DNA from: Fistulifera solaris
Taxonomy: Eukaryota
Direction of reading: 5' to 3'
DNA: 64,000 nt
Assembly: GCA_030295235.1 (NCBI GenBank)
Contig: AP026133.1
Coordinates: 1 to 64,000, forward strand
Shown here: positions 1 through 24,181 of the stretch, piece after piece
How the letters are laid out: each line of letters starts with the position of its first letter
How positions within the stretch are numbered: the stretch's first letter is position 1
Made by a program: the position numbers and the translations under genes
Notes under the pieces: model-generated
Database searches by the model: none
Told to the model about the DNA's origin: nothing
What the model saw: the letters and a program-made list of their open reading frames with translations, nothing else

Positions 1-277
1 TAACTAACTCCTAACCCAACTCCTAACCCTAACTCCTAACCCCAACCCTCAACCCCAACCCCAACCCTAACCCCAACCCTAACCCTAACCCTAACCCTAA
101 CCCTAACCCTAACCCTAACCCTAACCCTAACCCTAACCCTAACCCTAACCCTAACCCTAACCCTAACCCTAACCCCAACCCTAACCCCAACCCCAACCCT
201 AACCCTCAACCCTCAACCCTAACCCTAACCCTAACCCTAACCCTAACCCTAACCCTAACCCTAACCCTAACCCTAAC
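1..277 (+). repeat. Telomeric repeat array (CCCTAA)n, i.e. TTAGGG on the minus strand; chromosome end
   Basis: Tandem CCCTAA from the window start, with variants (CTCCTAA, CCCCAA, CCCTCAA) mostly in the distal part. Confidence 0.98.
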
Positions 278-3230: not shown

Positions 3231-3263
3231 TCCTACAGCATGAGGATTAGTTTATAAGCAAAA

Positions 3264-4164
3264 ATGGAACAGCATCGACCATCGCATAACCCTGAGACAC
3301 ATCTACAACGACTGGGAGGAGCCGGAGGCAGCAACTGATCTGCAAGGAAATCGGTTGCAGGCAGCAGCAGAAGATACACTTCAGGAGCTGGCGTCACTCG
3401 GAATGAATGTTGAATCGGGTTGTCGGTGGAGTCACCGAAGTCTATTCCCCTGTGGTGGTCCAGTGTTTGCTGGGGGCATTGTCTGATCTTCGTATGACCA
3501 CACTTTCAAATGGAGGCCACATTGCACCCCCGGGATGAGACACGAGATGGAATTCGGGCTTTGAACATGAACGTGAAGACCAACCTGGTATTCATCCCCA
3601 TGATGGCAACCAACAAAAAGATCAGTGCCTTTAACAACCTAAAATGAAGCCTGAATTTTGGGATGGGAAAACAGTCTACAACCTGGCGTGGTGGGAAGGG
3701 AATGTTACGTTGACTCGTATGAATGACGGATCAGGGAATTTCTTTTCCAGTCTTGAAATTGGTGCTTGGGTCCCCGATTATTTGATTCCCGAGTGAGTTG
3801 CAGGAGCACAAGCTGGCGATGAAGTGGCTGGCTCACCATGGACCTGTGTTTCCGGACAATGAGACTTACTATCTCAGCCTCAAAAAGGAGTATGTGACGG
3901 TCTTTCTCCCGGAACATGCAAAGTGAGCTTGTTGGTGGCGCGCCGGGCTGGATTCTTCCCTGTTTTCGCCCCCTCAAAAATGCAATCATTCAGAAATCAC
4001 CAAAGTTTGGCTTGAATGGGTACCAGCTGTCGACGATCAATCTCCAGCCCAAGTCCTACCTGGCCATGATTGGATTTGTGAAGGGAGCAGCACCCAACTT
4101 GCAGTTTATTACCTTGACCAACTCACAGAACAAGGTCATGGTCATTGCAAACCGCAACACTTGA
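3264..4164 (+). pseudogene. Disrupted ORF of unknown function upstream of and co-directional with rusA copy 2
   Basis: Protein-like fragments EFWDGKTVYNLAWWEGNVTL..., KLAMKWLAHHGPVFPDNETYYLSLKKEY, and ORF 3916-4164. No family recognised. Confidence 0.4.
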
Positions 4165-4276
4165 GTGATTCAAGCTATTTGTGCTTGTTGATTGTGTTTC
4201 TCGTGAATTAGGTTTTACTTAGGTCTCATTTCTTGTTACTCTTCTTCTGCATTTGCCTCACAGAGATTGCTAGAAA

Positions 4277-4946
4277 ATGTCTTTTGAACCTAGAAAAGCC
4301 GGTTGACTCACAAACCACAGTGGACTTCGACAATGCCAATCAGAAGGGGGGGAAAGCACCCGGTTGTTACAGCTATGTCTCTGGCCCCCAAATCAAGTAT
4401 GAATTCACCAACCACATACTCCCTTGCCTGCAAGATTTCTGGAAGACCAAGACCCCAGTATCGCAGCTATGCAACAACAACAAAAGCAAAGGGCAGAGTC
4501 AAGTTGTACAGTCCAAGTACAGGGAACCAGAAATCCTTTCGTGATGCATTCAGACAAGCATTGAATCATGCACCAAAGGGACTCTTCCCGATGCAATGGC
4601 AATCCATGCTCAATCACCGTGAAAGTTCTACTTTCCAAGACCCAAGACCCATTTCTTACTTGGACCAGCATCACAAGAATGGCTGTTGAAACCAACAGCT
4701 CCCAAATTTGTCACAAATGCTCCTGACAATGACAACTGCGTGAAACTGGTTTTGGATGCCTTGCAGGGGATTGCATACAAGAATGACTCATGCATTGTAA
4801 ACATTGCAACAACAAAGCTATATGACCACACACAGACAACTTATAGGGATGGTGTCAACTATGATGGCACAACTCTTATTAAGGTTGTGGAAATTGACCC
4901 AAACGTGAAGGATTGTGACTGCAAATGTTTTCATTGTGCCAAGTAG
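4277..4946 (+). pseudogene. rusA: Near full-length RusA-family Holliday junction resolvase (copy 2), with several frameshifts
   Basis: ISGRPRPQYRSY...KLYSPSTGNQKSF...(CSITVK/YFPRPKTHF)...APKFVTNAPDNDNCVKLVLDALQGIAYKNDSCIVNIATTKLYD...DCDCKCFHCAK*. The RusA motifs occur in the expected order. Confidence 0.88.
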
Positions 4947-5656: not shown

Positions 5657-6540
5657 GTCCTAGTGAAGGCATTTTGAGTACCGGTCGGCTAAGTATTTCA
5701 TTCTCGAGTCCTTCTTTTTACTTATAGTGAATGCTCTAACCCTTCGGAAAAGCAAAAACTTTTTGCCTCTCTATTTACCAAAACCGCTGCTAGTGAAGGG
5801 TTTTTGGGTACCGGTTGGGCAATAACTTGATTCACGAGTAGTATTTTCCAGAGGTACTGACTGCTCCTAAGGTCAGAACGTAAAGAACATGCAGAAGGCT
5901 AAGGACTTAGACGAAAAACTGACACCGGACACCGGGCATCCGGTCATTTCCCAAGGCCCATCTTCTTTACGATCTTAATAGCCTACCGGTACTGGCCTAG
6001 AGGTTACGGTACTTGTTGCTGGTACTCGTTACTCGTTACTTGTTTAGGCGCGAATTAAAAGTCGCACTCAAAAAAGTCCCCTCCTTACTTTTTGACTTGA
6101 GACCAGATAAAATACCTAAAAAACAGTGGAGTACTACTTTGTATCGACTGTCAAGGCTCCAGGCACGGGAACGCAACTGCTTGGTACATTTTTCTACGGG
6201 GGCCAAAGTTCCCGCTCCATCCGGTCTTTGGGCCTAAGGGCTTAGGGCCAAAACAACTTCAAGAATAGTCCATAACGCGCATCTTTTACTTTACGACTTA
6301 CTGTCATTATGGGGAGGAAAAAGCCGCGCATAGCGCTTTTTCCTTTGCCAAAAACACGCAAAACAACCCCGATCTTTGCCGCATTATTTAGTTGGTTGTT
6401 GTTGATCGATTCGTTGGTGAACAATATCTTTGAAACAATAAATAATAGTTTAAAGCCAACATTTGTAGAAACAAAACACAAACTTTACCTTCTAAAACGA
6501 GAAAAACAGCCGCAAACAGGCAACGCAACGACATTCTATC

Positions 6541-9500
6541 ATGTTTCGTTTGTCGGTAGGCGTCCTCTGGCTTTTCATTGCATCCTCGTGCATGCAAAAT
6601 GTCATCGGTCAAGGGCCGAACAAATTCTTGTTCCATGTTTCCGATTTGACGGAAGTCTTTGATGAGTTGACGACGATAACGGGTCCTCTTTCCTCGCAAG
6701 ATATACTCAACGCGGAGATTCCTTTCGTCGACAAGTCGATCAACGAAATGATCGGAGGAGATGCGGCCAAGACGATTGCGACACTACTCGACTTTTCCGA
6801 CTTTGTGCAGTTTACGATAGATGAAAATAACGGTGTTGATATCGAGTTGGATCGTGGTGAGATAGCAGCAGAGTTGACGAGCTACTTGCAAAGTTTGGAT
6901 CTTACCTCAGATCTCCTCGCTGGTGAGGGCTGCACGAAAAACATTGATGCTACTTACGTAGAAGGAGGCGAAGAGACGGTGCAATTAACATTCTGTGTAC
7001 TCTTCAACCTGACTAGAAGTACGACATTGAGTGGCGATGGATTGTTTGACAGTATCCCTGAGATCTTTGAGATTGATTTGGATGTTTCATTGGACTTTGC
7101 AGCCACGCTTCTCTTCAAGGCACAGCTCGATATTGCTTTCATTCCAAATGGGGCTACCGCGAACATTACTGTTGATCCTGTCATTGCTGCAATCACCGCT
7201 AACGGAGATGTCGACGTAACTGTGGGAGTAGGTGTGCTAGAGCTTCTATCCACAGCAACCGCGATTGTCGACGCTACTTTCGAGTTGGCGAATTGTGACA
7301 ATGCTACGGAAACTTGCGATAATATTGGCACTCGACTTGGTGACTCGGATTTTTATCTAGAACGCGCCGCGAGCTATTCGATTGCCGGTAACATGACCCT
7401 TGGTTCGACATTCCCTGGTCTCACGCTTGGAGGCGATGCTTCCTTTTCGGTTGTAGAAGAAGACATCTTCAACCCTGCCCCCAATGTCACATTCGAGAGC
7501 TTTAACTTCGAGGATTTTATCAGTTTCAGCCCCGAGAATTCTGTGGCGATGCTTCGTTTGATCGACAGTGCTATCGTTCGTGCCCAAGAAAATGAGGCTT
7601 TCAATACCAATATACCGTTAACCGATACGAGTGTCGCGGAAATCCTGTCGACGGGGTCACTGGTCACTACCAGTTTGCTCCGATTGTTTCAGAAAGTCGA
7701 GCCGTACGAAGATCGACCCACCAAGTCCCTCTTCTTGAAGCAATCCGAGTCCTTCCCCACGAGTACAACGGACACTACGGACGGAAAGACGTACGAAATT
7801 TACGTGCTTGTCGGAGACAGTACGACTGGCACAGAACTCAACGTCAATCCAGATAACCAAGCGGCGCTCTATGATTTAGTGGAAAGCGAAGGAGTGATTT
7901 GCAGTATTGAGTTCGATGAAAACTTTTCCGATTCGACGACGTTCAAGGATGGTCTCTTGACGGTTTTGCAAGCCGCTAATTGTCCAGGACTTACAGTTTG
8001 TGAAGCAGAAACCGACTGCGATTTCGATGAAGAATCAGGAGATTTTTTCAGGCTGCACCGATGGTGCTGATGATTGCCTTCTCGCTGTTGGGATTGATGA
8101 AGACGATCTTGTCTTCATTGTCTCCAATGCCGACAGCGACGTTCATTTGATCGGCTTCATGGAACCACTGGCCACGACGCAAGGCGAAGGAACCATATAC
8201 AAGTTCCCCGTCAATACACCAGCTTTTCCGGCCCTGATTCCGAGATTCCGAAGTTGGCAAAACTTTACAGACTTTCTATCTGACGCCATCGCAAGTAGCA
8301 CGGATATTGTGGACGTCAGCGTAGATTTCAGCTACACTGAAGCAATAGCTCCTGATCCAGCGCAATACGAGCTGGTGATAGGTTTTTCGAAATCTGCTTC
8401 GTTTTCGGTTGGTTTAAATGCTTCTGAAGGTATCGGAGATTTGATTGACATAACGGTTAGCGAGGGGTCTTCGCTTGATCTAACCGTTAGCGCCGCTTTC
8501 GAAACTACCTTTGGTGTGCTGATGGAAGCTGATGACGACCAAAGCTTGACTGTGCTAGCGGAATCATGCGGAGGAGACGGTTTTGCTTGTGTCGCGGATT
8601 CGCTCGACATTGTTCTTTTTTACGTAGAAAACGTCGACGGAGTATCAGAAGACCAATGGATCAATACAACTGTCGCCAGCAGTACGAATAAAAATATCAC
8701 ACAGGAACTTGAAGATGCGATTGGAGAGGTGGCAACCGTCACGGAACAAGGGAGTTCTCTTCTCGTGATCCGATTCAATCCGAACATAACTGATGTGAAA
8801 TTGCTGTTGCTAAAGGTACGTTTCGAGGGGCACGGCATCATACTCTGTTTGCCACTTGCCACTAACAACTGTCTTTTTCTTTCTTGGTGGTTTCAGAACT
8901 GCAATAGTACTGACATCACGACCGAAATGAAACAGAGCAGTGTGCTTGAGTGTCAAGAAGATGAATTGGTTTCTCCTATTGCGAATGATTACGGGTTAGA
9001 AGATTTTAGCTTGTCCAAGCGGAAGTGGCAGATTGTTATTGGAGACGCCTCCATTTCAGCTAACGTGACTGTGAGTCTCAACGTTCAACTTTCTACCAAT
9101 GTTGGCGGCGTTATCGAGGTGACTGCTGAATTGGAGGGCGACATTACGGGGTACTTGGAACTGTCTCTAGGAACTGGAGAACTTCTCCCTTTCAGTGACT
9201 GGCTAGTCGCATTGATTAATATTTTCGATTCAGAAAGTGAGGGTTATATTGCTGATTTTTTCGAAGCGTCCGCAACCTTTGATGCGACTTTTGAAGCTAG
9301 TGTTGAGCCTAGTTCACCGTTCAATTTACTGGCAACCGCCAGCGCAAGTGGAGGTTTCGCGGAACCTTTTGTGATTGATTTCCTTGCTAAAAACTTTTCC
9401 TACCCTGAAATCGAGTTTGACGTCAATATTGAAGGCATTGGGGACGTTCGGAAACTAACCTTCAGACAAGTGGTTGCCATTCTGGCGGATGTGCTTGAGT

Positions 9501-12500
9501 TTTTGGTTGGAAGCAATGAAGACGATGGCGTCGATTCTTGCTCGGGTGGCCTTCTTGGACAAGATGCTTTCACTTATCAGCTACCAGGTACGTCTTACAA
9601 ATGGTTAAGTTTGCGTAATGTTTTGCTTGATCTGTACGCTCACGTTTTTTATCCACTTGACATCACCTTTCATCTCCAATCTTCTATATAGTGATTGGAA
9701 TCAGTGTGTGCAGCACTGCATCGTTTCTCCAAGTTCTTGTCAATGCTGTCGAAGAGCTTCTTGATGAGACGACCACCTCCGGCAGCAAAACGACGACGAC
9801 ATTTTCGTCTTTGGAAGTGAAATTAGAAACGCTCTTGCAAGATGGTGTAGGTGGTACTCCTTCTGTTAATATCACGACGACTTCTGATTCCATTCGTTCG
9901 GAGCTTTCTGTCGAATTGACGCTTGCTTGGACCTTTACTCTAACCGAAACCTTTGTCTTGGACATGTCCAACTACTTTTCGGAAGAGGACCTAGAAAACA
10001 ACGCCGGTCTCGATTTCTTTGCAAATGCATTGCTTCCAGGTACTGGGGAGGGACAGTTTGGGCTTGAAGCAGGGCTGGTCTTCACAATGGGGGTTGGCTT
10101 GGAATACGTGAGCGCGACTAATGACGTCAATCCTTTCGTGAAAGGGACTACGGGATTTAAACTCCAGTTGGCTGCGGCGGGCTCTCTTGATTATGAATGT
10201 TCAGTAGGCGCGTTTCAAGGGGGTGTGGAAGCCGAGTTTAGCTTTGGTGATGGGGACGGTGGCCCAATGGAACTTTCGGTGGGACTCGATGAATCTCTGA
10301 ACTACTATCTTTCAGACCCTGGTGCCGATTCGTCTAACAGAGAAGGTTTCAAAATTGTGTCTGGAATCAGTGGCCTTGTTTCGGAAGTGGAAGCAGTATT
10401 TGCAGGACAAGCAACTGCTAACTTGACGGCTGGATTGAGTTTACTCGGGTTGTCGATCGATGTCGACGCGGCAATAAGTGACTTGCAAGCATTCTTTCTT
10501 GGAAACACTTCCGTTTTGAGCGTTGAGTTTACGCCGTCATTTCCATCCTTTGAGGTTCCCAGTTTGTTGGACATCCTTTTGGCGGAGCCGCAAGGCATTA
10601 TCGATGCTCTGGACGATGTTTTCAAGACTGCCGAAGAGGCGTCTGTCGGAGAGAATGGTATCATCACGCGATTTCCCGTCCCATTCATTCGCAATGGATT
10701 GGGAGATGCTCTCGGAGCGGGAACCTCGAACAACATTTTAGCCAAGGGACGTAATAAAGTGATTCCGTTCCTACAAGAGGGTCTGGACTCTTTTGAAGGA
10801 AAAACAGATACCGTTGGAGATGTTTTGGCTCGATTGATGGATAAAGCACTGGATGCAGTTGAGCCCAGTCTCCGTCTCGAAGGCCGATCCACAGAATTCA
10901 TTTGCTACATTTACAGCAACGACACTTTGCAGCAAGAAGCAGTGGATTGTGTGGACGAAACTAATGATCCTACTTCAGTGATGTGGAGCCTCCCATTCGG
11001 GCAGTCTTTTAGTATTGATCTTCCGCTGGATTTCGATCTGGACGCGGGAAGTTTCCCACTTGAAATCACCTTTGATGGCGGAGACTCGTCTTTGAAGATA
11101 GGATGGGGCCTTGACCTGGCATTCGGTTACATGGAAGGCCCGGGTTTCTTTCTCTTTACGTTCCCCGACGATGGGCCAGAAATAACCATTGAGGCTGGTC
11201 TATCAATTGTTGGCTTTACCCTTGATGCGACGCTGCTATTTTTGAAAGGCTCTCTCAGTAACGGTAACTTAGTGGTTGCTGTCGGATTGTCGGTCGATAT
11301 GGATAAAGGCAATGCGCTGCGATTAAAGTCGGGAGAAAACGCTACGGATCCGCAATACGGCCGCCTTACTCGAGATTCCTTTCGTAAAATCACGAAAATC
11401 AGTGATTTATTCGTCCCAGGTGCGACAGCGGGTGCGACCGTTGAAATTCCAGACGTCCGGTTTCAAGTCAGTGTTGAACTACTAGGAGGGAGCTCGTTAG
11501 CGCAGGAAGTGGTGGCTTACATACCGCAACTTACTGCTGAGATATATGCTCAAGCGCGAAAGGTTCTTTCAACGGATGATTCTCCTGCCAGGAGATTAAA
11601 GTTTGAAGCTGCGCGCAGGAGTCTGGGCGTACATCCTGCTCTTGCCGGGCACGACGCTGCTCCTCTTTCTCGCTCCTTATCATTTTCGGACGAATTCGCT
11701 CTCCTGGCTGACGATTTTGTGTTTGAGGAATGCCCCATCGAAGCGGATTCAACGTTTTGTGCCCGTGTAAGTCAACTGAATTTGGACATGTCGAAAATCC
11801 GAGATCTCGTGGAACCTGTCTTGGTCGAAATAACCAACAAAGATGAGACTGGTTTCCTTGATAAAATGGTCCGGCCGCTGATTATTTTAGAAGAAAGATT
11901 GCCTGGAATCTCCGACATCATGAACAAAAAGATCACCGTTCTCGACATAGCTGAGGTACGTTGGAAATTATTTTTGCTGTTGCTCCATGGCCTCACCGAG
12001 AATGTGCTGCGTGCTGACATTTCCCTCTGCGTATCTAGGCCATGATTGGTCCCAAATCAGGTGCTCCCACGGTTCGTAGAATCATCCAGACGTATCGACA
12101 GATCAATGACTTAATCGGAAGCTTTTTGGAAGATGGCGGTTTGCTCCTGGCCGAGGAATGCGATGTGCTTGACAGTTTCACTTGCACGGGTGGTGTCTTT
12201 AACAACGCGAGACGAGGGTTAACGATACGTGTTTCGAGTAGTATGAGTCAATTGTTTGATTTGGAAGATGCCTCTTTGCTGCCCACGACTCCATCGCATG
12301 TGATTGAGCTGGAAAGAGGTTTACAATCAGGCACATGTACCATCAATACGTCTGACTGCAGCGGAAGTTGCTCCGGATGCACAGGGACTACAAAAATCAA
12401 GTGTCAAAAAGATTACCTCGTTTGTAAAGCAAAAAGCGTGAAAGGGCTTACATTTCCTTTCATGAGCGATTTAACCAGTGTTGTTGGTTTGCTGTCCGGT

Positions 12501-15500
12501 GGTGATATTGTAAGTACCGGTACCAGGTACCGCTAGTACGAAGTCGTTACTGTACATTCGCTGTCACACTTGTCGGTCACAACGATTTTGAATTCATCCT
12601 TGACTCACTCCCTTCTGCAGCAAATTGTTGACTTTACACCCGACCCCGTGACATTTGCTTTTACGTTTGAGCTTTTCTTTGTTCTTTACACACCTCCCAC
12701 TGTTGAACTGGCCATTACGTTTGAATTTACTGCTGTTTTACGAGTTGGATTTGTATTGGATAGCAAGGGTATTCGAGAAGCCGTGGAACAGGAAGAACCC
12801 ATCAAAGCCTTGAACAGCTTTGCTCTGAAAGATACGTTTGACGGCGTCGATGAAGCGATGATTACTTTGACGGCATCTGTCACCATTTCCGTGGATGTCA
12901 GTGCTGTAATAATCAAAGTGGGCGTCAGCGGAGCAATAACATTTATTGTCACTGTCGATTTGTATGATCCGTATCCAGAAAAGAGCGGTGGTTTGGTCCG
13001 TCCTTTCGAACTGCTCACGTCCGGTTCCAATCCGCTCGAATGGTTTGAGTTTGGAATCCAAATCTTTATTACCATTACGCTTTATGTCAAAATCGGTCTT
13101 TTCCTGGGCTTCGTTGAGATTACCTTGTTCAAGTACGAAGTCAGTTTCAAGTTTGACTTGATTCCTCCGTTGTTGTTTGTACCAGCAATCGACGGTATGC
13201 CAGTCTCAGTCACAAGCAGTGGTTCCCTCCAAATTTCGGCTTCCGGTGCTGAGGACCTTGCCTGTACAGGTCTTGAAGGGACCACTGGGAACGAGCGAAT
13301 TGAATGTTTTGAAGGGCTTGGTGTACAAGATTTTACAGGTATTAAAAGCATTACGGATTCTAGTGCTATTGCCAGCATCGCTTCAGAAACGGATGTGGTG
13401 TATCGAAACATGCGTTCTCCCGTCAACACACCAGCTACCATGTACAGTGCCGTGACGTTCGATTACGTGTCAGGGACTGACATTCTATCCAACGATGAAA
13501 TTGTTATTTTTCAAAACAAGGTTTTTATCGGGACCTTTAACATGGCGTTCCGGTCCATTGGAAGGGCGAACATTAAGTTACCCACTCCCGAACAATCCTT
13601 CCTAACGACCACCATCAATGACTGTAATACGCAATGGGAGCTCAACGGTCACACCAACATCGAGATCAATGCTACTGCTTTTCAAAGTGGGTGCGACATC
13701 ATAGCACCTGGTGGAGAAGCCACGGATGCAAAGTTGACGATTGATTTTGGTTTGAAGACAACGTAGCCTGTGAAGATGGCAACATTGTTAAACTTAGCAT
13801 GTCAGGGAACGATTTGGTGGCGGAAATTACCAGGGCGACATCGACGGGTTCGGTAACAAAACAATTTACATTCGGTTCTCCGTTTATTTACGTTGAAATT
13901 AAAATGTCAAATTGCGCAGATACCGTCATAGTTGAGAGTTCCACGACCAATGAAAAGGGATATATCTCAGTTGAGATGGGAGACGATGATGACGAAATCA
14001 CTATCGGCACAGATTCAGCTGGACTTGCTGATATTTCCGTTCGCGTCCTTATTGATGGCAACGATGGAAGCGATACACTGACTATCAATGACAAAGGAGA
14101 AACCTCGGGAAGAAACGGCGGTCAGCTTTCCAGCGCATCCGTCTTGGGTTTAATGTTTGGTGAGGGTGGCAACAATACGGATGTTGACTTTTCCTCAATC
14201 GAAATTGTGAATCTATACCTGAGCAAAGGGTCGAACGAGTTCTTCGTCGACTCCACGCCGCAATATTCCGAAACTTTCATGTACTTCCAGAGCGCGAATG
14301 ACATCCTGACAGTGAATGCCACGCAAGGTAATTTATTTGTGGAAGGTGGGGAGGTAATGATGTGTTTTACGTTTACGGTGCAGGAGACGACTCAACGATC
14401 ACTATTTTCGGTGAAGATGGTGACGATACACTTTTGGTTGACGGTACAGACGGCAATGTCGATATGACAGTCAACACACTGGACACATCATCCGTACGCT
14501 GGAGTGGGGGCTTGAACAATGACGAAATTACGGTCGTACTCACTTCAACTGGATCAACCAATATTGATCTTTTCGACGATAGTGGTCTGGGAATTAACAA
14601 GTTGGCGGTCGAGTGCTCGAACTTTGCTTGTTACTTGCTGAGTCGGCGCACCTTTATTGCAAACATCCACGACGTCTCTGATGTGTCCTCTGATGTAGAA
14701 CGCATCAGCATTGACATTAATAGTGTCAATCTCAACACAATCCAAGTCAATCTCAACAATGGAGAGAATGAAATGTACTTTGACGATACAATGGCACCGA
14801 TGAATGTGTTTGGCGGAAATGATGCAGATTGTAAGTAGCCGCGCCTCGTGCCATTGCAAATCGTCAAAAATTTATCTAACCGTCGCATAAAAGCCTTTTA
14901 CATCGGACAACTGTACAACTCCGAACGAGATGAGGCAGCAAATGTGAACATCAACGATCCGATCTCCACAACGCTAACAACTAAAGGCTATTTGTCGGAC
15001 GGAAATTCCTTCTCGCTTACATTGAATGGCGGGTTTGGCAACGACTATTTCGATGTTCTCCGGAATCGTTTCTTGCTGGATTTGAACGGCGACTCTGACG
15101 ATGATCTGTTTGTTGTTAGGTCGTTCTTGGCTTTAGACTTGGATTCCTTGGGCAATCCTCTTGAGAATACGACCCTGGGAAATATCACCCTGCTAGGAGC
15201 GGATGGATCAGATACGTTCGATTTGTCCGGTACGAGCGACAATTCAACCGAATCTCAGGAATCCTCGGACTCTTCGCAGTTGCCCAATTATGTTGTTAAC
15301 TCATTAGTTGATGTTGATGGTGGCACCGGTAACGATAAACTCATCGTTGTTGGAACCGAAGCAGACGATAGATACGTTATCACTGCTGACTCGGTATTTG
15401 GCGGTGGGTTGAGTATCTCGTTTACAAATATCGAGGCAATCGCTCTTACTGGAGGTGCTGGAGATGACACACTGACCGTGCTCTCTACTAGTCCTAATCT

Positions 15501-18500
15501 CGCGCTGTAAGTTCCTGCTGATTCGAAGAACTGAACTGGATGATGACCATCGTTTCTAACCCACCTTTTTCTTTTGCAGGTATCTTTATGGTGCTGAGGG
15601 CTCAGACACCTTTGTAATAACACCACAGAAGGTTGATCCAGTTGTATCGAAAAACCTTCGAGGCCATAGGGGCATCCTTCGACACACTGTCACTAGTGCT
15701 GATCTTGGTTACGACGGATTAGCTGTGGAGGGCGTTGCTGTTGATGTTCTAGATAATGACGGTGATTCAGGGGCGTATTTCAACGTTATCGAAACCGAAG
15801 TGGTTCACGTTATGGATGAAGATGGACTTGGCACCTTTTCCTTTTGGCTGTACCCCACTGTCACCCCAGATCCATGGGTCACGGTGCAAGTTGCATCCCA
15901 AACAGATGTAAACGGAAATGCGTGGCTGCTGCTAAACGGGGATGATCTAACTGCCGTTGAGCTCGTCTTCAATGAGACGGCGGAGCCCCAAGAAGTAATA
16001 GCCTCCTTCAATCCCGCTGCAGCTCGACTAGAAATTACGGACTACAACTTACTCATCAAGCTTGATCTTGTTCCGTTAGAGTCGCCAGATCTGAGATTTG
16101 AAACGACGGCACAAACTATCCGCCCAGTATCCGTCAAGCTTTTGCCAGCGAAAAATAGCCCACTTGCGAAGTCTGTCACTGTTGTCCAGCCGGATGGAGA
16201 CATTAACGTTGGAGAAGGAGACCAAGGGTGGTCTAGTTCGTACGATGTCTATCTGAGACCATGCACTAATGCCATGATTCAAAACACTATAGTAGAAATC
16301 GTTCCCACGGAGACAGGAAGAGTGACCGTCAACCCCGAAGTCATCGATTCTGCACATTGGGGGAGCCAAGCAGGCGGCTGTAAAGTAACCGTTCAAGTCA
16401 CTCCTGCTGTAGATTCTGATGAAGAAGGCATTCACTTTGTGACGCTAACACACAAAGTCGTTGACTCGAATCAGGAAGACATTCGTCTCTCCGATGACAG
16501 CATATTGTATGCAGAGAGTGTGTTGGTTCGAATTTACGACGATTTAGTTCCGAATGTCGTCATTAAGGAGAGTTTGAGTGTTACAAGCACTGCGGAACTT
16601 GACCAGGACGTGATCAATCTTTGCCGGACGAATCATTTTACGTTGACTCGTACACGATCCGGCTTGCAAGTGAGCCTGAGGAAGATGTTATTGTTACAGT
16701 CGAATCAATTGCAAAGGCAAGTGATTATGACTTGTCTAAGAACACTGAAGAAAGAGTGCAGGTTTTGGTTGGCGCTGAAGGCAGTGAGGCTGAAAGTTTA
16801 CAACTTACCTTTACGAAGACGACATGGTTTATAGAGCAAACGGTCCGTGTTGTAGCCAACAATGACAACGTACAAGAAGGTGTTGACTTGCTCCACTTTC
16901 CGGATCAGCCGTCTTTCTTGGCCTACATCCAAGGACCTATTTTCATAGAGGGTGATACCTCGCCTGACGTTCCAGACATTCGCGATGCTGTACTATTTCC
17001 CGGCGAAAATGACACCAGCTTGTTCGCGTTCTTAGAAACACCTCCATCAGAGTTAGTTTATCCTGAAATGCAAGTGGACACACTTAAAATCTTCAACATT
17101 GACGTGCAAGGATCAAGTCCGTCTATTGGTACGTTGACCGATTCCCAATTCGTCGGATACAATATGGCGAAAGAAATCATTATTGGTGGCGAGAGTAAGA
17201 ATGATGGCATCTCTTACAGCGGGATGGAGGTCATAGAGTTTTACTTTGGTAGCGGTGTTGATAGTATCACTGTCGAGAGTACATCTGTTGCTGTCCACTT
17301 TGTTGACCTGGGTGATGGCAACGATTCTGTGAAAATACAAAACATATCAGGGCACTTTATCATTCATGGCAGTGACGGATCAGATACAGTAACAGTTGCG
17401 TCGGTGGAATCAACAGTGGACGCCATCAAGGGCCTTCTTGCGTTTGACGGAGGCAACGATGATGCTGCAATTGATCATCTTATTATCGACAATTCAGGCG
17501 ACATCACCAGTGACGACATTCTGAACGTCACGCGAAACACAGTCGAAATTGAAAGTATGTCCAATACGGAGGATGAGGAATCACGCATTCCACGAGATGT
17601 ATTTATTTTTAGCCTCAGAGGTTCAACAAGCGGCTACTTCAATCTTGCAGTCAACGACCCCATAACAAACATGACAACAGACACTGATATTCCATACCCG
17701 ACCAATAGTGAGCTTATTGAAGAAGCACTCCAAGATTTAATCTTTCCAGCGGCCAAGGGTGATGTATGCGGCAAGAACCAAACGTCACGTTGTGCGGAAA
17801 CGGTCAAGGTGTATGCGGTCGGAGATGAAGCCTTTGCCGTTTTCTTTTTGGGGGAGCGATTAAACGACGGTTTGACCCTAACTCTAACAACATCGGGCCT
17901 AGCCGACTTCACGCCCGAGATCTTTGTAAACGCCTCGAACGACATCCTTCTCCGCAGTACTGATGTTGCGTACGCAGATGTGGAAGTACTTGATATCACA
18001 ATGGGAAATCCACAAAGTTCAGACTTCAAGATTGTCGTGAATGTCAGAGGAACGACCGCTATCACCACGATCACAACCCAAGATGGTGATGACGCTTTCT
18101 TTGTATCGTCTGAGGCAAACGAAAACGTCATGACTTCCAGCACCGTAGATTTCTTGCATGGATGGCTTGATTACATTGAAAACGATCTCTTCCTCAATGC
18201 TGCGTCAGGGCGCCACCGACTGTTGATCTCCGACGAGAGCAGTTATTTTGGTAAAGGACCTGCGATACTCTCCAGCACCTCGTTTACAGCCATTCATGAA
18301 GATGTTGGTGACATCTTTTCACTGCAGATGGCGGAAATTGGATAAGTGGCGTCAACTTGTGGCTGAGCCCTAACAATGATGAGGTTAGCGTAGTGTCTAT
18401 CGCATCGGATCCAACATCTCCCTCTTTTCAGACAACTACATCGGTTCACTGTGGAGATGGAAACGACAAACTCACGATATCGATTGATGAGGTCAATACA

Positions 18501-21500
18501 GTTTTTGTAGCGAACGGCCAGGGCGGAAACGATATTTTGGATGCATCTGAGTCTTCCGTTCCTGTTATCTTGTTCGGTGATGGTGGCAGAGATACGCTGA
18601 CGGGCGGTACCAGCAACGACATTATAATCGGCGACTTTGGTCGAGTTTTGTGGCGATCATCGTCTAGTGATATTTTCCAGGCAGACAACGCGATCGCGGC
18701 TCGAGCGGGTGGAGGTGGTTATGGCGACTTCACGGATGGTGTCCTCCGCTTCCGTGACTGATGCATTTTCTTTGGCGTTTGACGAGGGTGACAGTGACAT
18801 TATCATTCTAGGTGAAGGCGATGATTGCGCGATCGGGGGCTTTTCTGATGATCAAATATTCGGTAATCTCGGGAACGACATTATAGTAAGTGCTCGAAGC
18901 AATGCTGTTTTGGCAAACACCTTCGTAATACTGACTATTGCATTCTTCAGTTCGGTGATTCCGCACAGCTCCTTTTCGATATGGATAGTGGCTTCCCTAC
19001 GTCGCTTTTAACATTGAGCTGCGATCAAGGAGGAAATGATATTTTGTCTGGAGGCGAGGGAGTTGTGAACTACATTGTCGGTGGAAGTTTCGATGATACA
19101 ATTCAAGGAAGTGGTGCCATGGATCTCGTTTTTGGTGACCATGCCAGCATTAGTCTTTATGCGGACTCATCTCACAAACTGCAGATTGCCGTGACGGTGG
19201 ACCCTGCTTGTGGTGGCGGTTCTGATGAGATCTACTTGGGAGCAGGTGACGACATTGTGAGTATGAATGCATGAATTCCAAATTCGCTTGCCCGGTGTCT
19301 GTCTAATCGATAATATTGTTAACTAGGCTTTCGGTGGTGCGCACGGTGACTATATTGAAGGAAACGCTGGGCAAGATGTGATTTTGGGGGACTTTGGAGT
19401 CTTTGACACGGAGACAGAGTTTTTAGATCATCAGAACTATCAAAGCTTCATTGAATTCCCCGAGTCGGCAGGCGATGATGTGATCCATGGAGGCGACGGG
19501 GACGATTTCCTGCTGGGCCAAGAGGTGCGTAGAGAGGGCGTGATGCGATGAACTCATATTTTCCTATCTCACGGATCGTTCGATCTCGTATCAAACCAAT
19601 TCAATTCTTTAGGGGTCCGATAAAGTGTACGGCGAAGCAGGCAATGATGACATCTATGGCGGTCATAACATTGATTTCGGTGACGATACTGGAGATGAGC
19701 TGAGCGGTGGACTCGATGAAGATTCCATTCTTGGTGACAATGGACAGATAGTACGTCAACTGATAACGTCGGCTTCCGAATTTCCTTGGTTGAACGGTAT
19801 GGTTTGGCTGAAGTATACTGAACCCTTTGATACCGAGGTTGTCCGAGAGATTCGACGTTACGACGACGTTGACGAGATCGGGGTACGTATAATGTGTCAG
19901 TTGTTGGATATGCTGACCAGTTATAATGCCGGGAGCTCACTGTATGGTGTTGGTTTTTCAGGGCGACGATAATATCGAAGGAGGCGACGGAAATGACACT
20001 CTTCACGGCCAAAGAGGTGACGATGGTACGTGGAAGACTGCGAATTAACGCTGTTAATTGCCGTTCGTGTTTTGTTCAAACTAATCGAAATCTCGCCTTG
20101 CTCTATTGTAGTCATTGATGGTGGTAATGGCCAAGATGGTAAGTAGCATACGAAATAGATCAATTGGAAGGAGGTTGTTGCGATCGCCCAGTGTCTCACC
20201 CTCGCTACTCTACGTTGTACAGAGATCTACGGTGAACTGGGTGCGGACACATTATTGGGCGGGAATGGTTCTGATATTGTGCTGGGAGATGTTGGATATA
20301 TTGTTCGCCGCTATGAAAAGGATGGTTCAGCTCGTCTCAACACAGACGGAACTTGGCACAAAGATGTTATTCTGGAGGAGGTTGGATACATTTCGGGTGT
20401 TGATCGCATTTCACAAAAACTCAATGTGAAAACTTCCTCGTTGTCCTTCGAAAGTGTTGTGTCTGCATCGCTTCTCTTCGTCGCACCAGCTTACACTAAC
20501 AGTGGCGGAAAGTATGCCGCTGGCGGTGATGACTGGTTGACGGATCTGATTCAGTTTGAGCTTGTCGATAGTTATGATGACGTAATAGATGGTGGAGACG
20601 GAAACGATATTCTCATTGGGCAGCGCGGCGGGGACCGCATCAATGGAGGGCCAGGGAATGACGTCATAATTGGTGACGCTGGATGGAATGTGGTCCCTGT
20701 CCACATGGATCTTCCTCAAATTCATCAAGTGTATCGAGCTTTGCGTGATCAGTCTAGTAGCAACTACCTTGTCGAAGGTGTGTCTGATAAGGAATATGGC
20801 ATTTTGTTTGCTGCGGAGTATGAATTGTATCCCGACCAGTACGGCCAGATAGATTTCCTCGGATCGATTGTGGACATGGTTCTGAATGCGGATCATGTTT
20901 TGAGCGGTCACAATCTTCTCCGCGATGTTCTCGGAGTTGCTGGCATCAGTACAACAAACGGGAAGTATTGCGTGCACCCAATGTTCCGCATTACACCAGG
21001 ATTCCTGCGAGACAATCAAAAGATACACGGAAATGATGTAATCACATCCGGCTTGGGCGATAACTTGGTCATTGGAGATGATATCAGGGCTTATTCGGGA
21101 ATCGACGTCTCGGACGTCCCAGAAATCGTCAGTATCCAACGTCGCATTGACAATCTGGTAAAAGCACTAGGAGTTCGGCTGAGCACAATGGAGGTGGATC
21201 AGGAATCCTTTTCTGGAGGTATGATTGGGTCATACAATATTAGTGTGGGTGATGATGAGATTGAGACATCGTCAGGAGGGTTTTCTCTTGTCACTGGAGA
21301 CACAATGACCTTAGTTGTACGAACTGTCGGATCAGGATCGTTTGTAAATGGCCAGCGTCTCCTTCTGGACACGGACAAACTCAAATCAATGATGCAGCGA
21401 CTAGCCGACGTTGAGCGCATTCTCTGGGATGTCAATATTTGCTTGTACGAGCTTCACACCGACTTAATGACGCAAATGACGGCAACGTACTCCGACCAAA

Positions 21501-22462
21501 TCGGGCAAAAGTCGACGCATGCTCTCTCCCTGGCGAATGATATCATCACATCAAATGGAAACGGAGACATTCTCATTGGTGATTCGAGTCTGCTTTACTT
21601 CCATGTCGACAAATCTCCAAGTGCATATCGGCTCAGTTATCTCTCTCGATCGCAACGGAGGTTTGCGACACGAAAGCTGCGAAATGTTCCGGACCAGTTG
21701 AGAAGTTCATTGATTTCACACGTGAGCCGATTGTCTCGGTCGGCCGCGTTCAATGGACAAGCCCCCTTTGATGACCTTCCATTCGTATTGACTGTTGGAT
21801 CCGACACGTTGCAACAAAACTTGGCAGTGAATTTGGCAGCGGGTGATTTCGCCTTTTTCGGATCGGTCGTCACGTTCCAAAACCCAAACACCGGATCTCT
21901 CTCTCGATACACACAGTCCATTAAGAACGTTCGCTCAAAACTTGCCTCGGAAGATCCCGTGGCTTCTCTCCAGTTTGGTATTCAATTTTATGATGAAAGA
22001 TATTCGCAGTTACCTGATGCATCTAAACCCAAACTTCACGGAGATTCCTTCACAGGGCTCGACAACAGCAATGTTATGTTGGGTGAATTTTTGACTGGGG
22101 AAATGTACAACGAAATCGACAGTGCCCAAACGACCCGAGTGGCCCTGAATGCCAACGCTTTTTCGTCATCGGCAGCGCAAGATTTTGCCGGCGACTTTTT
22201 TAACATTCAAGTCGGAACGGCTGCCAACGGCCAGTTTGGTCCGGACTTTTCCGTGGATGGAATAGCCATCGATGCACAAGTCGCGGCCCCCATTGAAACC
22301 AGCATGAAAGGACTGTTCCTAGAGCACCGTTTGATCCAAGATCTGCAAGAAATATTGTTTACAGAGAGCGGTCAATTGCGAGCCGATCGAGTGGGTACCG
22401 TCACGACTGGACCCCATTGTTCTGACGCCGAATCATCGTCTACAATCGCTCCAGCCGCCTAA
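6541..22462 (+). CDS. Giant (~5,000 aa) secreted acidic protein with RTX/hemolysin-type Ca-binding repeats and Calx-beta-like modules; 13 exons
   Basis: N-terminal signal peptide MFRLSVGVLWLFIASSCMQNVIG. Continuous plus-strand coding joined by GT-AG introns at 8816-8896, 9588-9691, 11956-12038, 12510-12620, 14831-14893, 15507-15579, 18886-18950, 19257-19326, 19525-19612, 19883-19961, 20026-20111 and 20139-20222. Many GGxGxDxL/I nonapeptides. YTIRLASEP...LTFTKTTWFIEQTVRVVANND module. Apparent frameshifts near 8045, 13750, 14350, 16620, 18315 and 18750. Confidence 0.88.
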
Positions 22463-24181
22463 TCTAAAGTTGGTTGTACGACAAAAGGGGCATTGTACGT
22501 TAAATGAAATATATATATATAATTTTCAACTAAAAAATAAGACAGCGAAACCTATCATCATTTGCCTATCAGTGGCGCGTCGTCTTTCAATTTTGTGACA
22601 CGGACATGCTGTGGATGATGAAAAAAAATAAAGATTTGGGCCTACACATTGCTCTTGCCGACTGACGATACCTTGCGGATAATGCGTCACGATGAACGAA
22701 CGGGAACCATAGAATAAAGACCCTTGATTGAGACGCTGAGAAATCACTGCGTTTCGAATAAATTGTTGTTGCATCTGGCGGAACACACCCAACTGACATC
22801 GCTGGTCGTCCGCTACCAACATCGTTTGGCACTGTCGATTGCCGATTTGATTCCGAATCATTATCCCCGGTGTGTCGGGCTTGTGGGGACCTATTTAATT
22901 ATAAAAAAGAAAGTGGCACTTTCAATCTCACTATGATGAATCGCGATACGCTTGAAATAAATAACGAAGAAGAAACAAAATTGTTACAAGCAGGTTCTGG
23001 AGACGGTCGTGATGATTTAAAACATGCACACTTTGAAGCCATCGACGAGTAGGTATGTTATCACTAGAATTCTGATAAACCTTCCACGCTTGTATATGAC
23101 TCACAAGTTTCATCTTGTTTGCAAGGTAATCCATTTTATGAAGCACAGATCGACTGAAAACTCACTCACCATTAACCTCTTCGAAGTTATTCAAAAGGAT
23201 GCAGCAATGTTTTCGCAAATGCTTACGTATTTTATAGCGGATCCTACAGTCAAAACAGGATTGAAGCTTTTGAGTCCTCGGAGCATAATGGTGGCGCTTG
23301 ATTCAATTTGGAATCGCCGAAATAATCTCAATCGACACCGATACCATTGGTGATGAATGTTCAACAGCCACACGTTTGCCAATGTAGTTTCTTGCAACGG
23401 ACTGAGACAGTCTGTTGGAACCAATATCGTAAGTTTGAACGAAAAACGATGGCCTATATCACTGAATGATTTGGGACTTTCCGTGTCTGCAATACCTCGA
23501 CGAAGTTTGTGCAGTCAACCAAAATTCATTGTCGCTCAAAACGGCATGTGACACTCTATCTCTACAAAAGCCACCGACGTCGGCGCCGACACCTGCACTG
23601 GCTGCATCAATCTCTACTGCTCAGAAAAGTTCTTGATTGAGCCAAGGTATTGATGTAGAAGAAAGCTTCAGGCTAATCAATACTGTCGACGAGGATGGGA
23701 ATGGCGCGTACGACCCGAGTACAATCGTTTGGTGGCTGCCTACAGCGAGACAAAATGTCAAGGCACACCGGGAATCGAGAAAATGTTTTCAATGACATGG
23801 CATGCATCTATCGAGAGCGTGGCGAAGGCGATACGTGTTGCGTAGGTACCAACGGCGGTATATAGCTGAGTGATGACGAACTGTAGAAAGAACTCTGTCA
23901 ACGCATTGATCGCAATGCTTAAGGGAACTTTTGCAATGACGAAACAATGTCTGCTCCATCACGAAACTTGAAACAGAGGACACTTTGACGCCTCCTACGG
24001 TGTCGCTGAGTGTGAATCATAGAGCGTCAACGAGTGGTGCTGGATATTCTTTGACGCTGCGACCCTGCACCTGGTCAGCCTTGTATATTTAGCCGGTTGT
24101 CTTTCATCAATACTATTCTAAAACAGAACTTTCTCTTTCAACTAAGACTTTTGCAGTTTTTTTTGCAACCCCGACTATACT

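Follow-up and report, generated by a model that had tools for sequence, protein, structure and literature searches.

An intact giant gene with RTX-type repeats near a chromosome end of a diatom-like eukaryote, and its relatives in protists and bacteria

In the window of 64,000 nucleotides from Fistulifera solaris (the whole stretch of DNA that was analysed), the gene of a giant RTX-like protein was found at 6541..22462 on the + strand. This nuclear gene belongs to a diatom-like eukaryote, is intact, and is both transcribed and spliced. The gene is real, and it is unusual but not unique among eukaryotes. Taken as a whole, the results make it reasonably probable that the product is an intact, secreted, acidic giant of a bacterial-derived family which serves as an adhesive or matrix fibre.

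The reading frame was found to run as a single + strand gene from the ATG at 6541 to the stop codon at 22460-22462, and spliced contigs together with the corrected translation divide it into 13 exons and 12 introns, all of GT..AG type and 63-111 nt long. In the contigs of runs X2-X4, 11 of the 12 introns are present as joints: intron 1 (8816..8896, 81 nt; X2, X3), intron 2 (9588..9691, 104 nt; X2), intron 3 (11956..12038, 83 nt; X2, X3, X4), intron 4 (12510..12620, 111 nt; X2, X4), intron 5 (14831..14893, 63 nt; X2-X4), intron 7 (18886..18950, 65 nt; X2-X4), intron 8 (19257..19326, 70 nt), intron 9 (19525..19612, 88 nt), intron 10 (19883..19961, 79 nt), intron 11 (20026..20111, 86 nt) and intron 12 (20139..20222, 84 nt). 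Intron 6 (15507..15579, 73 nt), which is without a listed joint, is supported by loose contig ends behind base 15509 and before base 15580. Run X1 was unspliced and covered both flanks of the gene, where depth in X2-X4 was nil (bins 6000-6566 and 22443-23000). The label of the four sequencing runs X1-X4 as RNA is a guess, the whole transcript is spanned by no single contig, and contig depth is unsuited to ranking expression. The original prediction of an intron-containing eukaryotic gene of ~5,000 residues with 12 spliceosomal introns was borne out by these data, with 4,978 amino acids, 11 joints and one intron placed by loose ends.

The raw window sequence breaks the reading frame at six sites. 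A surplus base in a T run at 8043 and another surplus base at 18752 are absent from 4/4 runs, and an extra base is present in 4/4 runs behind 13748 (G), 14347 (G, in a G run), 16619 (T) and 18315 (T, in a T run). Because all four runs show a 1-nt indel against the window at each site, the six frame breaks are assembly errors and not lesions. After these six read-supported 1-nt corrections the coding sequence measures 14,937 nt (4,978 aa) with no internal stop, and homologue alignments run straight through the corrected sites (P0011 at aa 1930-3776, L018 at aa 2637-4136). A pseudogene, which had earlier been named as the finding that would overturn the prediction, is ruled out by the spliced contigs and by the lack of the frame breaks in 4/4 runs; the comparison of introns and frameshifts with reads, proposed at the same time, contradicted all six frameshifts and confirmed the splicing. 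As a separate observation, single-base indels in the window assembly occur about once per 1.7 kb at the giant gene, a rate that points to broken gene models elsewhere in the same assembly.

A telomeric array at 4..277 (by TRF 44.8 copies of CCCTAA, which reads TTAGGG on the opposite strand) marks a eukaryotic chromosome end. The host is called diatom-like on four grounds, namely this telomere, the short introns, the DUF285 neighbours and the Cyclotella relative. That the giant gene is the first host gene inward of the telomere, as had been supposed, is not upheld: two RusA-like ORF fragments (276-464 and 4623-4946) intervene. No component of a type I secretion system (T1SS) was found among the 14 downstream ORFs scanned. 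Two HlyD-family matches downstream were rejected as T1SS genes, both being on the biotin-lipoyl domain of pyruvate carboxylase.

The mature giant protein has a mass of about 531 kDa and a pI of about 4.05, with 775 D+E against 250 K+R residues, and its sequence has no C-terminal hydrophobic segment that could form an anchor. It begins at the first ATG of the open frame with MFRLSVGVLWLFIASSC, and this start (aa 1-25, 6541..6615) resembles a signal peptide in having a basic residue, the hydrophobic core VGVLWLFIASS and small residues. The signal peptide claimed originally is retained as a signal-peptide-like start, as judged by eye. The following N-terminal region (aa 26-988, 6616..9586) has no Pfam or NCBIfam family, and among the proteins fetched it aligns with Diplonema japonicum alone, from aa 325 and at 21% identity. 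A word search recovered 9 homologues for aa 990-1743. The region of aa ~1063-2085 (9913..13175) is shared in order with diplonemid and bacterial giants (Leptolyngbya P0176 and the Pseudomonadota MAG protein P0124) at 22-29% identity, and inside it lie hydrophobic stretches at aa ~1980-2070 which are interrupted by charged residues and have, by their sequence, the look of beta-strands. The module best conserved with bacteria (aa ~2520-2900, 14476..15754) has 33-40% identity and three strict GGxGxD motifs. The blocks GQLYNSERD... and YVVNSLVDVDGGTGNDK...GGGLSISFTNIE, which the prediction had quoted as typical of giant bacterial proteins, were both located in the ORF at 14839-15507 and belong to this module; the block of aa 2639-2841 was found in seven bacterial loci.

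RTX repeats are genuinely enriched, but the "dozens" of GGxGxD nonapeptides described originally were an overstatement. The corrected protein has 10 strict GGxGxD motifs (shuffles: mean 0.33, max 4, n=1000) and 18 relaxed GxGxD motifs (shuffles: mean 4.0, max 12, n=1000), and in the raw DNA the + frames hold 9 strict motifs, every one inside the gene, against 0 on the - strand. Pfam PF00353 (HemolysinCabind) matched 6/16 protein pieces, and two of the matches, at 24.6 and 32.4 bits, exceed the gathering score of 23 bits; both fall among the RTX-type repeat blocks of aa ~3780-4400 (18390..20725). When 200-aa chunks were blasted against the whole protein, internal repeats were almost confined to aa ~3780-4700, the sole other one being a 65-residue pair (aa 2325-2389 with 3394-3448). 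The AF2 model of the last exon (aa 4234-4978, 20225..22459; pLDDT 89, pTM 0.91) has shown one long beta-solenoid (model residues 1-688) interrupted by long helical insertions and ending in a helical tail. In VIA-align it scored Z 10.7 to the Ca2+-dependent MpAFP beta-helix of M. primoryensis (3p4g); CyaA RTX blocks scored Z 9.9 and 9.8 (22-24% identity), and generic solenoids up to Z 12.7. With the whole 745-aa model, Foldseek found nothing at E<=0.001. PDB sequence matches of the protein are the lipases 2z8z and 2qua. The modelling thus shows the C-terminal quarter as an RTX-type beta-solenoid with predicted calcium-binding repeats.

For the all-beta region at aa 2843-3188 (15581..16618), AF2 predicted tandem Ig-like beta-sandwiches (pLDDT 77.5, pTM 0.76). 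Foldseek matched this model to the CBD12 of NCX1/CALX at E 7e-9 to 7e-8 and TM 0.23-0.32, and pilins, ASH/PapD-like, FnIII and integrin domains match it equally well. With the 16 protein pieces, Pfam gave no match to the Calx-beta profile (PF03160) at E<=0.1. The Calx-beta-like modules of the original prediction are therefore not supported by Pfam, and the model shows Ig-like sandwiches of a general kind. Outside the RTX repeats no Pfam or NCBIfam family matched, retention-module and ligand-domain families included.

A search with the last exon returned 1,276 representatives at E<=1e-3, of which 83 reach E<=1e-30. Among the matches carrying a name, the eukaryotic relatives are Cyclotella, one MMETSP transcript and three diplonemids, and the bacterial ones belong to Pseudomonadota, Cyanobacteriota, Planctomycetota and Verrucomicrobiota. 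The relatives form three groups, namely an intron-bearing eukaryotic clade including Cyclotella, the diplonemid giants and the bacterial giants. The intron-bearing homologues have 34-56% identity to the giant protein and at least four intron positions in common with it. Sixteen metagenome loci have gaps flanked by GT..AG, and the gaps after aa 1900, 3944, 4046 and 4112 coincide with introns of the window: the gap of L018 lies at the place of intron 4, and the position of intron 7 is common to L008, L009 and L010, that of intron 8 to L008 and L019 and that of intron 9 to L008 and L010. Moreover, residue 1 of 11 homologous ORFs falls just behind the position of intron 5 (aa 2644).

The collinear giants include three diplonemid proteins, from D. 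japonicum (5,458 aa), R. euleeides (7,343 aa) and D. papillatum (KAJ9468835.1, annotated 'Iron-regulated protein FrpC'), and two bacterial ones, from a Pseudomonadota MAG (MEM8790522.1, 7,313 aa) and Leptolyngbya NIES-2104 (WP_058998374.1, 4,762 aa). The D. japonicum protein aligns in order at aa 325-1534, 1684-2065, 2325-4248 and 3914-4776, and the Pseudomonadota protein at aa 1365-2085, 2522-2948, 3153-3300 and 3912-4690. The C-terminal ~2,700 residues are homologous to giant bacterial RTX-repeat proteins module by module, with the order kept. Further bacterial homologues are found in Methylobacter, Methylobacterium and planctomycete and verrucomicrobial MAGs, and downstream of the Methylobacter relative lie genes for three HlyD-family proteins and for an ABC ATPase, a T1SS-like arrangement. 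No paper describing the family in diatoms or diplonemids was found, and the supplementary HGT lists of diatom genome papers may include it; in the main text of the D. papillatum genome paper the words FrpC, RTX, hemolysin and adhesin do not occur.

An old bacterial origin of the family is plausible, and we propose that it was most likely an ancient acquisition from bacteria by an ancestor of these diatoms, the introns having been gained afterwards. It is unlikely, in our estimate, that the history was other than bacteria-to-diatom, with the gene being old in eukaryotes and lost many times, passed between eukaryotes such as diatoms and diplonemids, or moved from a eukaryote into bacteria. Such a history would agree with the diplonemids as the best near full-length collinear matches (D. 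japonicum spans aa 325-4776) and with the first ~1,000 residues, which had no bacterial match among the proteins fetched. In the C-terminal tree, a branch (support 93, length 0.32) separates 46 rows, among them all the named bacteria, from the diatom-like and diplonemid clades, and the AU test did not reject the diatom-like and diplonemid rows as one clade (p-AU 0.56; the constrained tree was 1.84 lnL better). On the other hand, the tree of aa 2590-2870 pairs the diatom clade with a clade of Methylobacter, Hylemonella and the Pseudomonadota MAG and leaves the diplonemids outside (support 82). The named eukaryotes are also few against four bacterial phyla, T1SS-like genes adjoin one bacterial relative, and RTX beta-roll repeats are overwhelmingly bacterial.

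Both trees recovered a eukaryotic clade, of 24 rows including Cyclotella meneghiniana for aa 2590-2870 (SH-aLRT 100) and of 29 rows for the C-terminal region (SH-aLRT 98), and in the latter a very short branch (0.021, support 87) joins all three groups of relatives. Since neither tree resolves how these groups are related and the AU test does not reject the two eukaryotic groups as one, both the direction and the number of transfers can be given as proposals only. Of the horizontal acquisition originally predicted, the ordered C-terminal homology to bacterial giants is upheld, and a direction out of bacteria is plausible. The BLASTP and phylogeny check proposed with it did return bacterial giants, but the best near full-length matches are diplonemid. 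The gene is also no recent domestication confined to this genome; it belongs to an intron-bearing clade with intron positions in common.

With regard to function, an adhesive or matrix role is inferred for the giant protein. The N-terminal signal peptide would take the chain into the ER, in place of the C-terminal type I secretion of the bacterial relatives, and the RTX solenoid would fold upon Ca2+ binding in the Ca2+-rich ER lumen or extracellularly. The product may be a long, rigid, polyanionic extracellular fibre, acting in cell-surface adhesion or matrix building through Ca2+-bridged contacts, and it is probably neither an enzyme nor a pore-forming toxin; no catalytic or pore-forming domain was detected with NCBIfam and Pfam profiles. 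There is perhaps one chance in several that the protein has another job, as part of a cell-covering structure (a frustule-associated organic casing or a mucilage scaffold) or as a Ca2+ buffer or sink, and is not an adhesin. Its extreme acidity and size would suit such a job, as would the solenoid and sandwich build, which fits a scaffold, the want of a recognisable ligand-binding domain family and the fact that homologues come both from a planktonic-type source (Cyclotella) and from metagenomes of mats or freshwater. Bacterial proteins of similar build, however, are usually surface or adhesion proteins, which speaks against another job.

It is very improbable that the protein is a cytolysin-like RTX toxin which forms pores and is directed at bacteria, grazers or competitors. 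The RTX repeats, the hydrophobic windows at aa ~1980-2070 and weak NCBIfam alignments to RTX_toxin repeat regions might suggest it, but the best score to RTX_toxin (NF033943) reaches 24 bits where the cut-off is 1000 and comes from repeats alone, the hydrophobic stretches are broken by charges and beta-strand-like, and the size and architecture are unlike those of cytolysins of ~1,000-1,700 aa. The chance of an artefact (bacterial contamination, chimeric assembly or a dead pseudogene), suggested by the six frame breaks of the raw window and the bacterial type of the sequence, is negligible, as the gene shares one contig with the telomere and eukaryotic neighbours (PhyH, CREG, pyruvate carboxylase, DUF285), GC is even at 0.45-0.49 through gene and flanks, the 12 introns are removed in RNA-type contigs, every frame break is missing from 4/4 runs and homologues share intron positions.

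RTX-repeat giants are regarded as a hallmark of Gram-negative type I secretion. An expressed, intron-bearing eukaryotic version would show that very large bacterial surface-protein genes can be acquired and retained by eukaryotes, and also that a secretion-coupled, Ca2+-driven folding device can work behind an ER signal peptide. The giant protein is a concrete candidate for the little-known acidic proteins of very high molecular weight on diatom surfaces or in diatom adhesives, and its gene draws attention to un-discussed homologues in diplonemids. More tentatively, and with less than even confidence, it can be speculated that a whole gene of ~15 kb for a giant exoprotein with a Ca2+-dependent beta-solenoid crossed from bacteria into protists of the sea or of freshwater (diatoms and diplonemids, independently or by passage between them), had its export rewired from C-terminal type I secretion to an N-terminal ER signal and reused Ca2+-triggered RTX folding in the Ca2+-rich secretory pathway, so as to give half-megadalton fibres for attachment or for cell-cell or cell-bacteria contact. 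If true, two ecologically dominant protist groups would possess a family of such fibres.

Among known systems, the RTX toxins and T1SS enzymes (CyaA, HlyA, serralysins, family I.3 lipases) share the nonapeptide beta-roll with the giant protein, including a fold match to the CyaA RTX blocks, whereas the match is confined to the repeats, with NCBIfam scores of 15-24 bits where the cut-offs lie at 500-2000. The protein also differs from a T1SS substrate in being encoded by a nuclear gene with a signal-peptide-like start, with no T1SS gene among the 14 downstream ORFs scanned and no match to an NCBIfam T1SS C-terminal target model. Closer to it is an unnamed and uncharacterised giant family of diplonemids and bacteria, which keeps the module order of the window protein over up to ~4,000 aa at 21-39% identity and has in common with it aa ~1063-2085, aa ~2520-2900, the RTX blocks and the C-terminal solenoid. 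In comparison to the bacterial giants, the window protein is encoded with introns, starts with a signal-peptide-like stretch, is without their DUF4347, FG-GAP, PKD and matrixin-named domains, and has a handful of Pfam RTX stretches in place of 10-29.

The fibrillar RTX adhesins of Gram-negative bacteria are of the LapA, MpIBP, FrhA and SiiE type. The window protein resembles them in being giant and strongly acidic and in having beta-sandwich modules as well as an RTX region at its C-terminal end, for which Ca2+ binding is predicted here. It is not a canonical RTX adhesin, because the long tandem array of near-identical extender domains is missing; nor did a retention module or a known ligand-binding family match. 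Export by T1SS is impossible in a eukaryote, and the predicted N-terminal signal peptide would substitute for it.

Diatoms have acquired adhesive trail proteins with a CAA domain, the Trailins, from bacteria (bioRxiv 10.1101/2023.03.06.531300). As described in the preprint text, in which the words RTX and calcium do not occur, Trailins carry Choice-of-Anchor-A (PF20597) and PTS-rich repeats (10.1101/2023.03.06.531300), whereas neither was found in the window protein, the CAA domain being without a Pfam match. According to the same text, Trailins are very large, acidic extracellular proteins of diatoms that bear a signal peptide and took their key domain from bacterial surface proteins (10.1101/2023.03.06.531300). 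They are thus a precedent for the window protein, in which these features are in part predicted.

Between 6.5 and 22.5 kb, the plus strand carries chained long open frames with 15 frame switches, some of which are bordered by GTAAGT...CAG and others lie within short homopolymer runs. This stretch (6541-22462) had been predicted as an intron-containing gene for an RTX-type giant, and positions 6000-23000 were compared with four public runs of one study (X1-X4), whose type is labelled only as 'RNA? (a guess)'. X1 was found to be genomic-DNA-like, having no joints and contigs which continue through the introns and both flanks. X2-X4 are RNA-like: 11 intervals with GT..AG ends (63-111 nt) are missing from their contigs, and on both flanks these runs drop to zero depth (bins 6000-6566 and 22443-23000). 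The 12th intron (15507-15579) appears as loose ends at 15509 and 15580 with letters agreeing with the far exon edges, and the predicted count of 12 introns is thus correct, 11 of them being contig joints in X2-X4. The six exonic frame breaks (8043, 13748, 14347, 16619, 18315 and 18752), counted correctly in the original prediction, are each contradicted by a 1-nt indel relative to the window in 4/4 runs, and these frameshifts are therefore assembly errors of the window. Short homopolymer runs hold several of the six sites. Removal of the introns together with the six read-supported corrections gave a CDS of 14,937 nt with a terminal stop only, encoding 4,978 aa, in line with the ~5,000 aa predicted, and homologues align without a break over the corrected sites (P0011 over aa 1930-3776 and the metagenome locus L018 over aa 2637-4136).

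Across these 17 kb, ten single-base indels separate the window from the read-derived contigs (about 1 per 1.7 kb), six of which disrupt the frame of the giant gene; the four further single-base differences are intronic or outside the gene and were seen in X1 only. Other gene models of the same assembly are likely to be broken by similar indels. One substitution, T>C at 9036, is present in all four runs. In a further run (X5, a freshwater metatranscriptome), the fraction of words present was 0.05. A pseudogene, the outcome which the original prediction had set against itself, is excluded by the splicing and by the frame, which is intact after the read-supported corrections. It is virtually certain that the giant gene is real, intact and expressed, and the original observation was essentially right and is backed by the read evidence.

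The corrected protein has the signal-peptide-like N-terminal start that had been described, and both the quoted peptide blocks were found in the translated sequence. After its first 25 residues the chain has a mass of ~531 kDa and a pI of 4.05, with 775 D+E vs 250 K+R; the protein holds 37 N-x-S/T sequons, and a search for a C-terminal hydrophobic segment found none. The 'dozens' of GGxGxD nonapeptides were an overstatement, as the corrected protein has 10 strict motifs (expected 0.33; maximum 4 in 1000 shuffles) and 18 of the GxGxD form (expected 4.0). Pfam matched a single family, HemolysinCabind: six pieces between 18.3 and 20.7 kb gave matches, and two of these exceeded the gathering score. 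The Calx-beta-like modules reported earlier are without a Pfam Calx-beta match at E<=0.1, and membership of that family was rejected by profile. An RTX cytolysin was rejected because the NCBIfam matches are sub-threshold, repeat-level alignments only. Whole-protein self-BLAST gave the identity match only, and 200-aa chunks were used in its place against the whole protein; internal repetition proved to be almost confined to aa ~3780-4700, and the protein therefore lacks a tandem array of extenders.

The N-terminal ~2,600 aa received no family assignment from Pfam or NCBIfam. This part includes a hydrophobic beta-like stretch at aa ~1980-2070 (Kyte-Doolittle windows >1.8 at aa 1980-2052), and the region holding it (12417-13175, aa ~1870-2085) is conserved in Leptolyngbya, a Pseudomonadota MAG and other giants, with no family and no PDB sequence match. 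PDB sequence searches with aa 2843-3188, 3190-3754 and 1901-2276 gave nothing credible, and that with the last exon gave lipase RTX regions only. Recognition in the ESM Atlas was 1333 for aa 990-1743 and 1823 for aa 1-500, both below the 2300 level and to unnamed clusters only.

Structure modelling was confined to aa 2843-3188 and aa 4234-4978. The AF2 model of aa 2843-3188 (22-row alignment, pLDDT 77.5, pTM 0.76) is all-beta and resembles tandem Ig-like sandwiches of many kinds, its matches being pilins, ASH-type domains, NCX1/CALX CBD12, RbmA and integrin legs, all at TM 0.2-0.3. For the last exon (aa 4234-4978; 42-row alignment), AF2 predicts a single long beta-solenoid, which spans model residues 1-688 and carries long helical insertions (pLDDT 89, pTM 0.91). 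Foldseek with the whole 745-aa model returned 0 matches at E<=0.001. VIA-align related it to generic solenoids (curli CsgA, IgA1 protease and Vag8; Z 12.7-11.0), to the Ca2+-dependent beta-helix of the Marinomonas antifreeze/adhesin region (Z 10.7) and to CyaA RTX blocks (Z 9.9 and 9.8, 22-24% identity).

The last exon matched 1,276 cluster representatives at E<=1e-3, of which 83 reach E<=1e-30; the block aa 2639-2841 found 41 proteins and the exon aa 990-1743 only 9. Comparison of the full giant protein with every fetched protein separated three groups. The close group (34-89% identity) includes Cyclotella meneghiniana and one MMETSP transcript; 11 of its ORFs begin, with their residue 1, at the position directly following window intron 5 (aa 2644), and the matches of 14 ORFs stop at aa 3289/3290. 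With a 17-row alignment, 16 metagenome loci were retrieved, in which collinear homology is interrupted by frame-switching gaps of 64-124 nt, mostly GT..AG-ended. At four positions these gaps coincide with window introns, namely after aa 1900 (L018), aa 3944 (L008, L009 and L010), aa 4046 (L008 and L019) and aa 4112 (L008 and L010). The close group is therefore an established family of eukaryotic genes whose introns are partly conserved.

The second group is diplonemid. In D. japonicum, a protein of 5,458 aa is collinear with aa 325-4776 (21-31% identity). R. euleeides (7,343 aa) aligns similarly, as does the 6,666-aa D. papillatum protein KAJ9468835.1, encoded on a 484-kb contig. The D. papillatum homologue is annotated as 'Iron-regulated protein FrpC'; in a term search limited to the main text of the genome paper of this species, FrpC, RTX, hemolysin and adhesin were absent. 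Among bacteria, the 7,313-aa protein of a Pseudomonadota MAG is collinear with aa 1365-4690, and the Leptolyngbya NIES-2104 protein (4,762 aa), which has DUF4347, FG-GAP and RTX domains, matches aa 1063-1512, 1870-2085 and 3901-4698. Partial matches were found in Methylobacterium, Hylemonella, Planctomyces/Planctomycetales and Rubripirellula. The 423 pattern matches in genome contigs contained 7 relative-encoding loci, belonging to Limisphaerales (two), Verrucomicrobiia, Methylobacter, Nostoc, Xanthobacteraceae and Pirellulales. Long ORFs of the two Limisphaerales and of Methylobacter share with the window only aa ~2400-2850 (14.0-15.5 kb) and repeat modules, and the last exon, searched in the genomes of five of these seven bacterial loci (L001, L003, L004, L005 and L007), was found in 0/5 at E<=1e-8. 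Downstream of the Methylobacter relative lie three genes of the HlyD family and one for an ABC ATPase.

In an unrooted quick IQ-TREE of the C-terminal module (84 rows, 518 columns), the window falls in a 29-row clade (SH-aLRT 98), diplonemids form a 7-row clade (100) and every named bacterium lies in a 46-row group (93). The branch joining the diatom-like, diplonemid and bacterial groups is 0.021 (87), and this tree therefore does not order the three groups. Beside the diatom-like clade branches P0083, a metagenome protein of 4,681 aa on a long branch, which carries EGF_CA and teneurin-like EGF domains in addition to its RTX repeats. The second tree, of aa 2590-2870 (56 rows, 255 columns, unrooted, with a long-branch warning), used rows extracted by BLAST, phmmer extraction of the aa 2520-2900 module having split domains. 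Here the window clade has 24 rows including Cyclotella (100) and pairs, with a support of only 82, with a 23-row clade containing Methylobacter, Hylemonella and the Pseudomonadota MAG, two diplonemids lying outside this pair. Holding the 24 diatom-like and two diplonemid rows together was not rejected by the AU test (p-AU 0.56) and was 1.84 lnL better.

It is well supported that the gene was acquired once, in the ancestor of the diatom-like clade or earlier. RTX repeats are bacterial in character, and because of this and of the relatives found in several bacterial phyla, a bacterial donor is plausible; a bacterial origin of the giant gene is the somewhat favoured reading. Neither unrooted tree shows the direction or the number of transfers. 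The horizontal acquisition proposed originally is thus partly supported: collinear giants occur in bacteria, but the event is old, the trees do not fix its polarity, and the family extends also to diplonemids.

The window begins with 44.8 CCCTAA copies at 4-277, and its start is therefore a eukaryotic chromosome end. GC is even across the first 24 kb (0.43-0.49). Contamination or a chimera was rejected on the telomere, the even GC, the eukaryotic neighbouring genes, the introns removed in the RNA-like contigs and the intron positions shared with homologues. The giant gene had been called the first host gene inward of the telomere, which goes too far, as two plus-strand RusA-like (PF05866) ORF fragments intervene (276-464 and 4623-4946; E 6e-7 and 1e-12). 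They are mutually 74% identical across 35 aa, and one of them directly adjoins the telomere repeat; the pair may be a subtelomeric repeated element with a remnant of a phage- or bacterial-type Holliday-junction resolvase. A bromodomain-like match in a subtelomeric minus-strand ORF (1118-1750) is weak and stays under the cut-off (E 0.0036, 17.7 vs 21.7 bits). At 6164-6204, a 410-nt X1 contig matches 41 nt only, with loose ends on both sides and a depth of 32.9 vs ~20 in neighbouring contigs, which hints at a small repeat element a short way 5' of the giant gene. Downstream ORFs encode PhyH, CREG, pyruvate carboxylase and two DUF285 domains, the latter being a neighbouring plus-strand pair of strong matches (56957-58042 and 59256-60107; E 3e-89 and 2e-90 for the pair). 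These DUF285 neighbours, the TTAGGG telomere, the short introns and the Cyclotella meneghiniana relative within the clade of the giant gene point to a probable diatom source.

The probable mechanism starts from what the gene and its product show: the gene is intact, spliced and transcribed, and the protein is extremely acidic, lacks a membrane anchor and combines RTX repeats and a predicted solenoid with Ig-like modules. The chain would enter the ER by its putative N-terminal signal peptide. In bacteria, RTX repeats remain unfolded while Ca2+ is low in the cytosol and fold once type I secretion has exported them; in the giant protein, the solenoid would fold upon binding Ca2+ supplied by the ER lumen and the outside medium. 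The secreted product would be a long, stiff, polyanionic fibre, acting probably via Ca2+-bridged contacts in adhesion, in the matrix or in a cell-covering structure. The protein is very probably a secreted Ca2+-binding solenoid protein, and we hold the overall reading of gene and product with moderate confidence; adhesion is about as likely as another extracellular structural role.

A search of titles and abstracts found no such protein described in diatoms or diplonemids. The giant protein would resemble fibrillar RTX adhesins in its working and is not a member of them. Their tandem extender is absent from it by the 200-aa chunk BLAST, neither Pfam nor NCBIfam revealed their retention module or ligand domains in it, and their T1SS export is impossible for it in a eukaryotic context. 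Membership of Trailin/CAA was rejected, as there is no such Pfam match, and on comparison with the Trailin preprint; even so, Trailins come closest among published precedents for giant surface proteins of diatoms with a bacterial derivation. Judged by its alignments, the true family of the protein is that of the unnamed collinear giants of diatom-like, diplonemid and bacterial origin.
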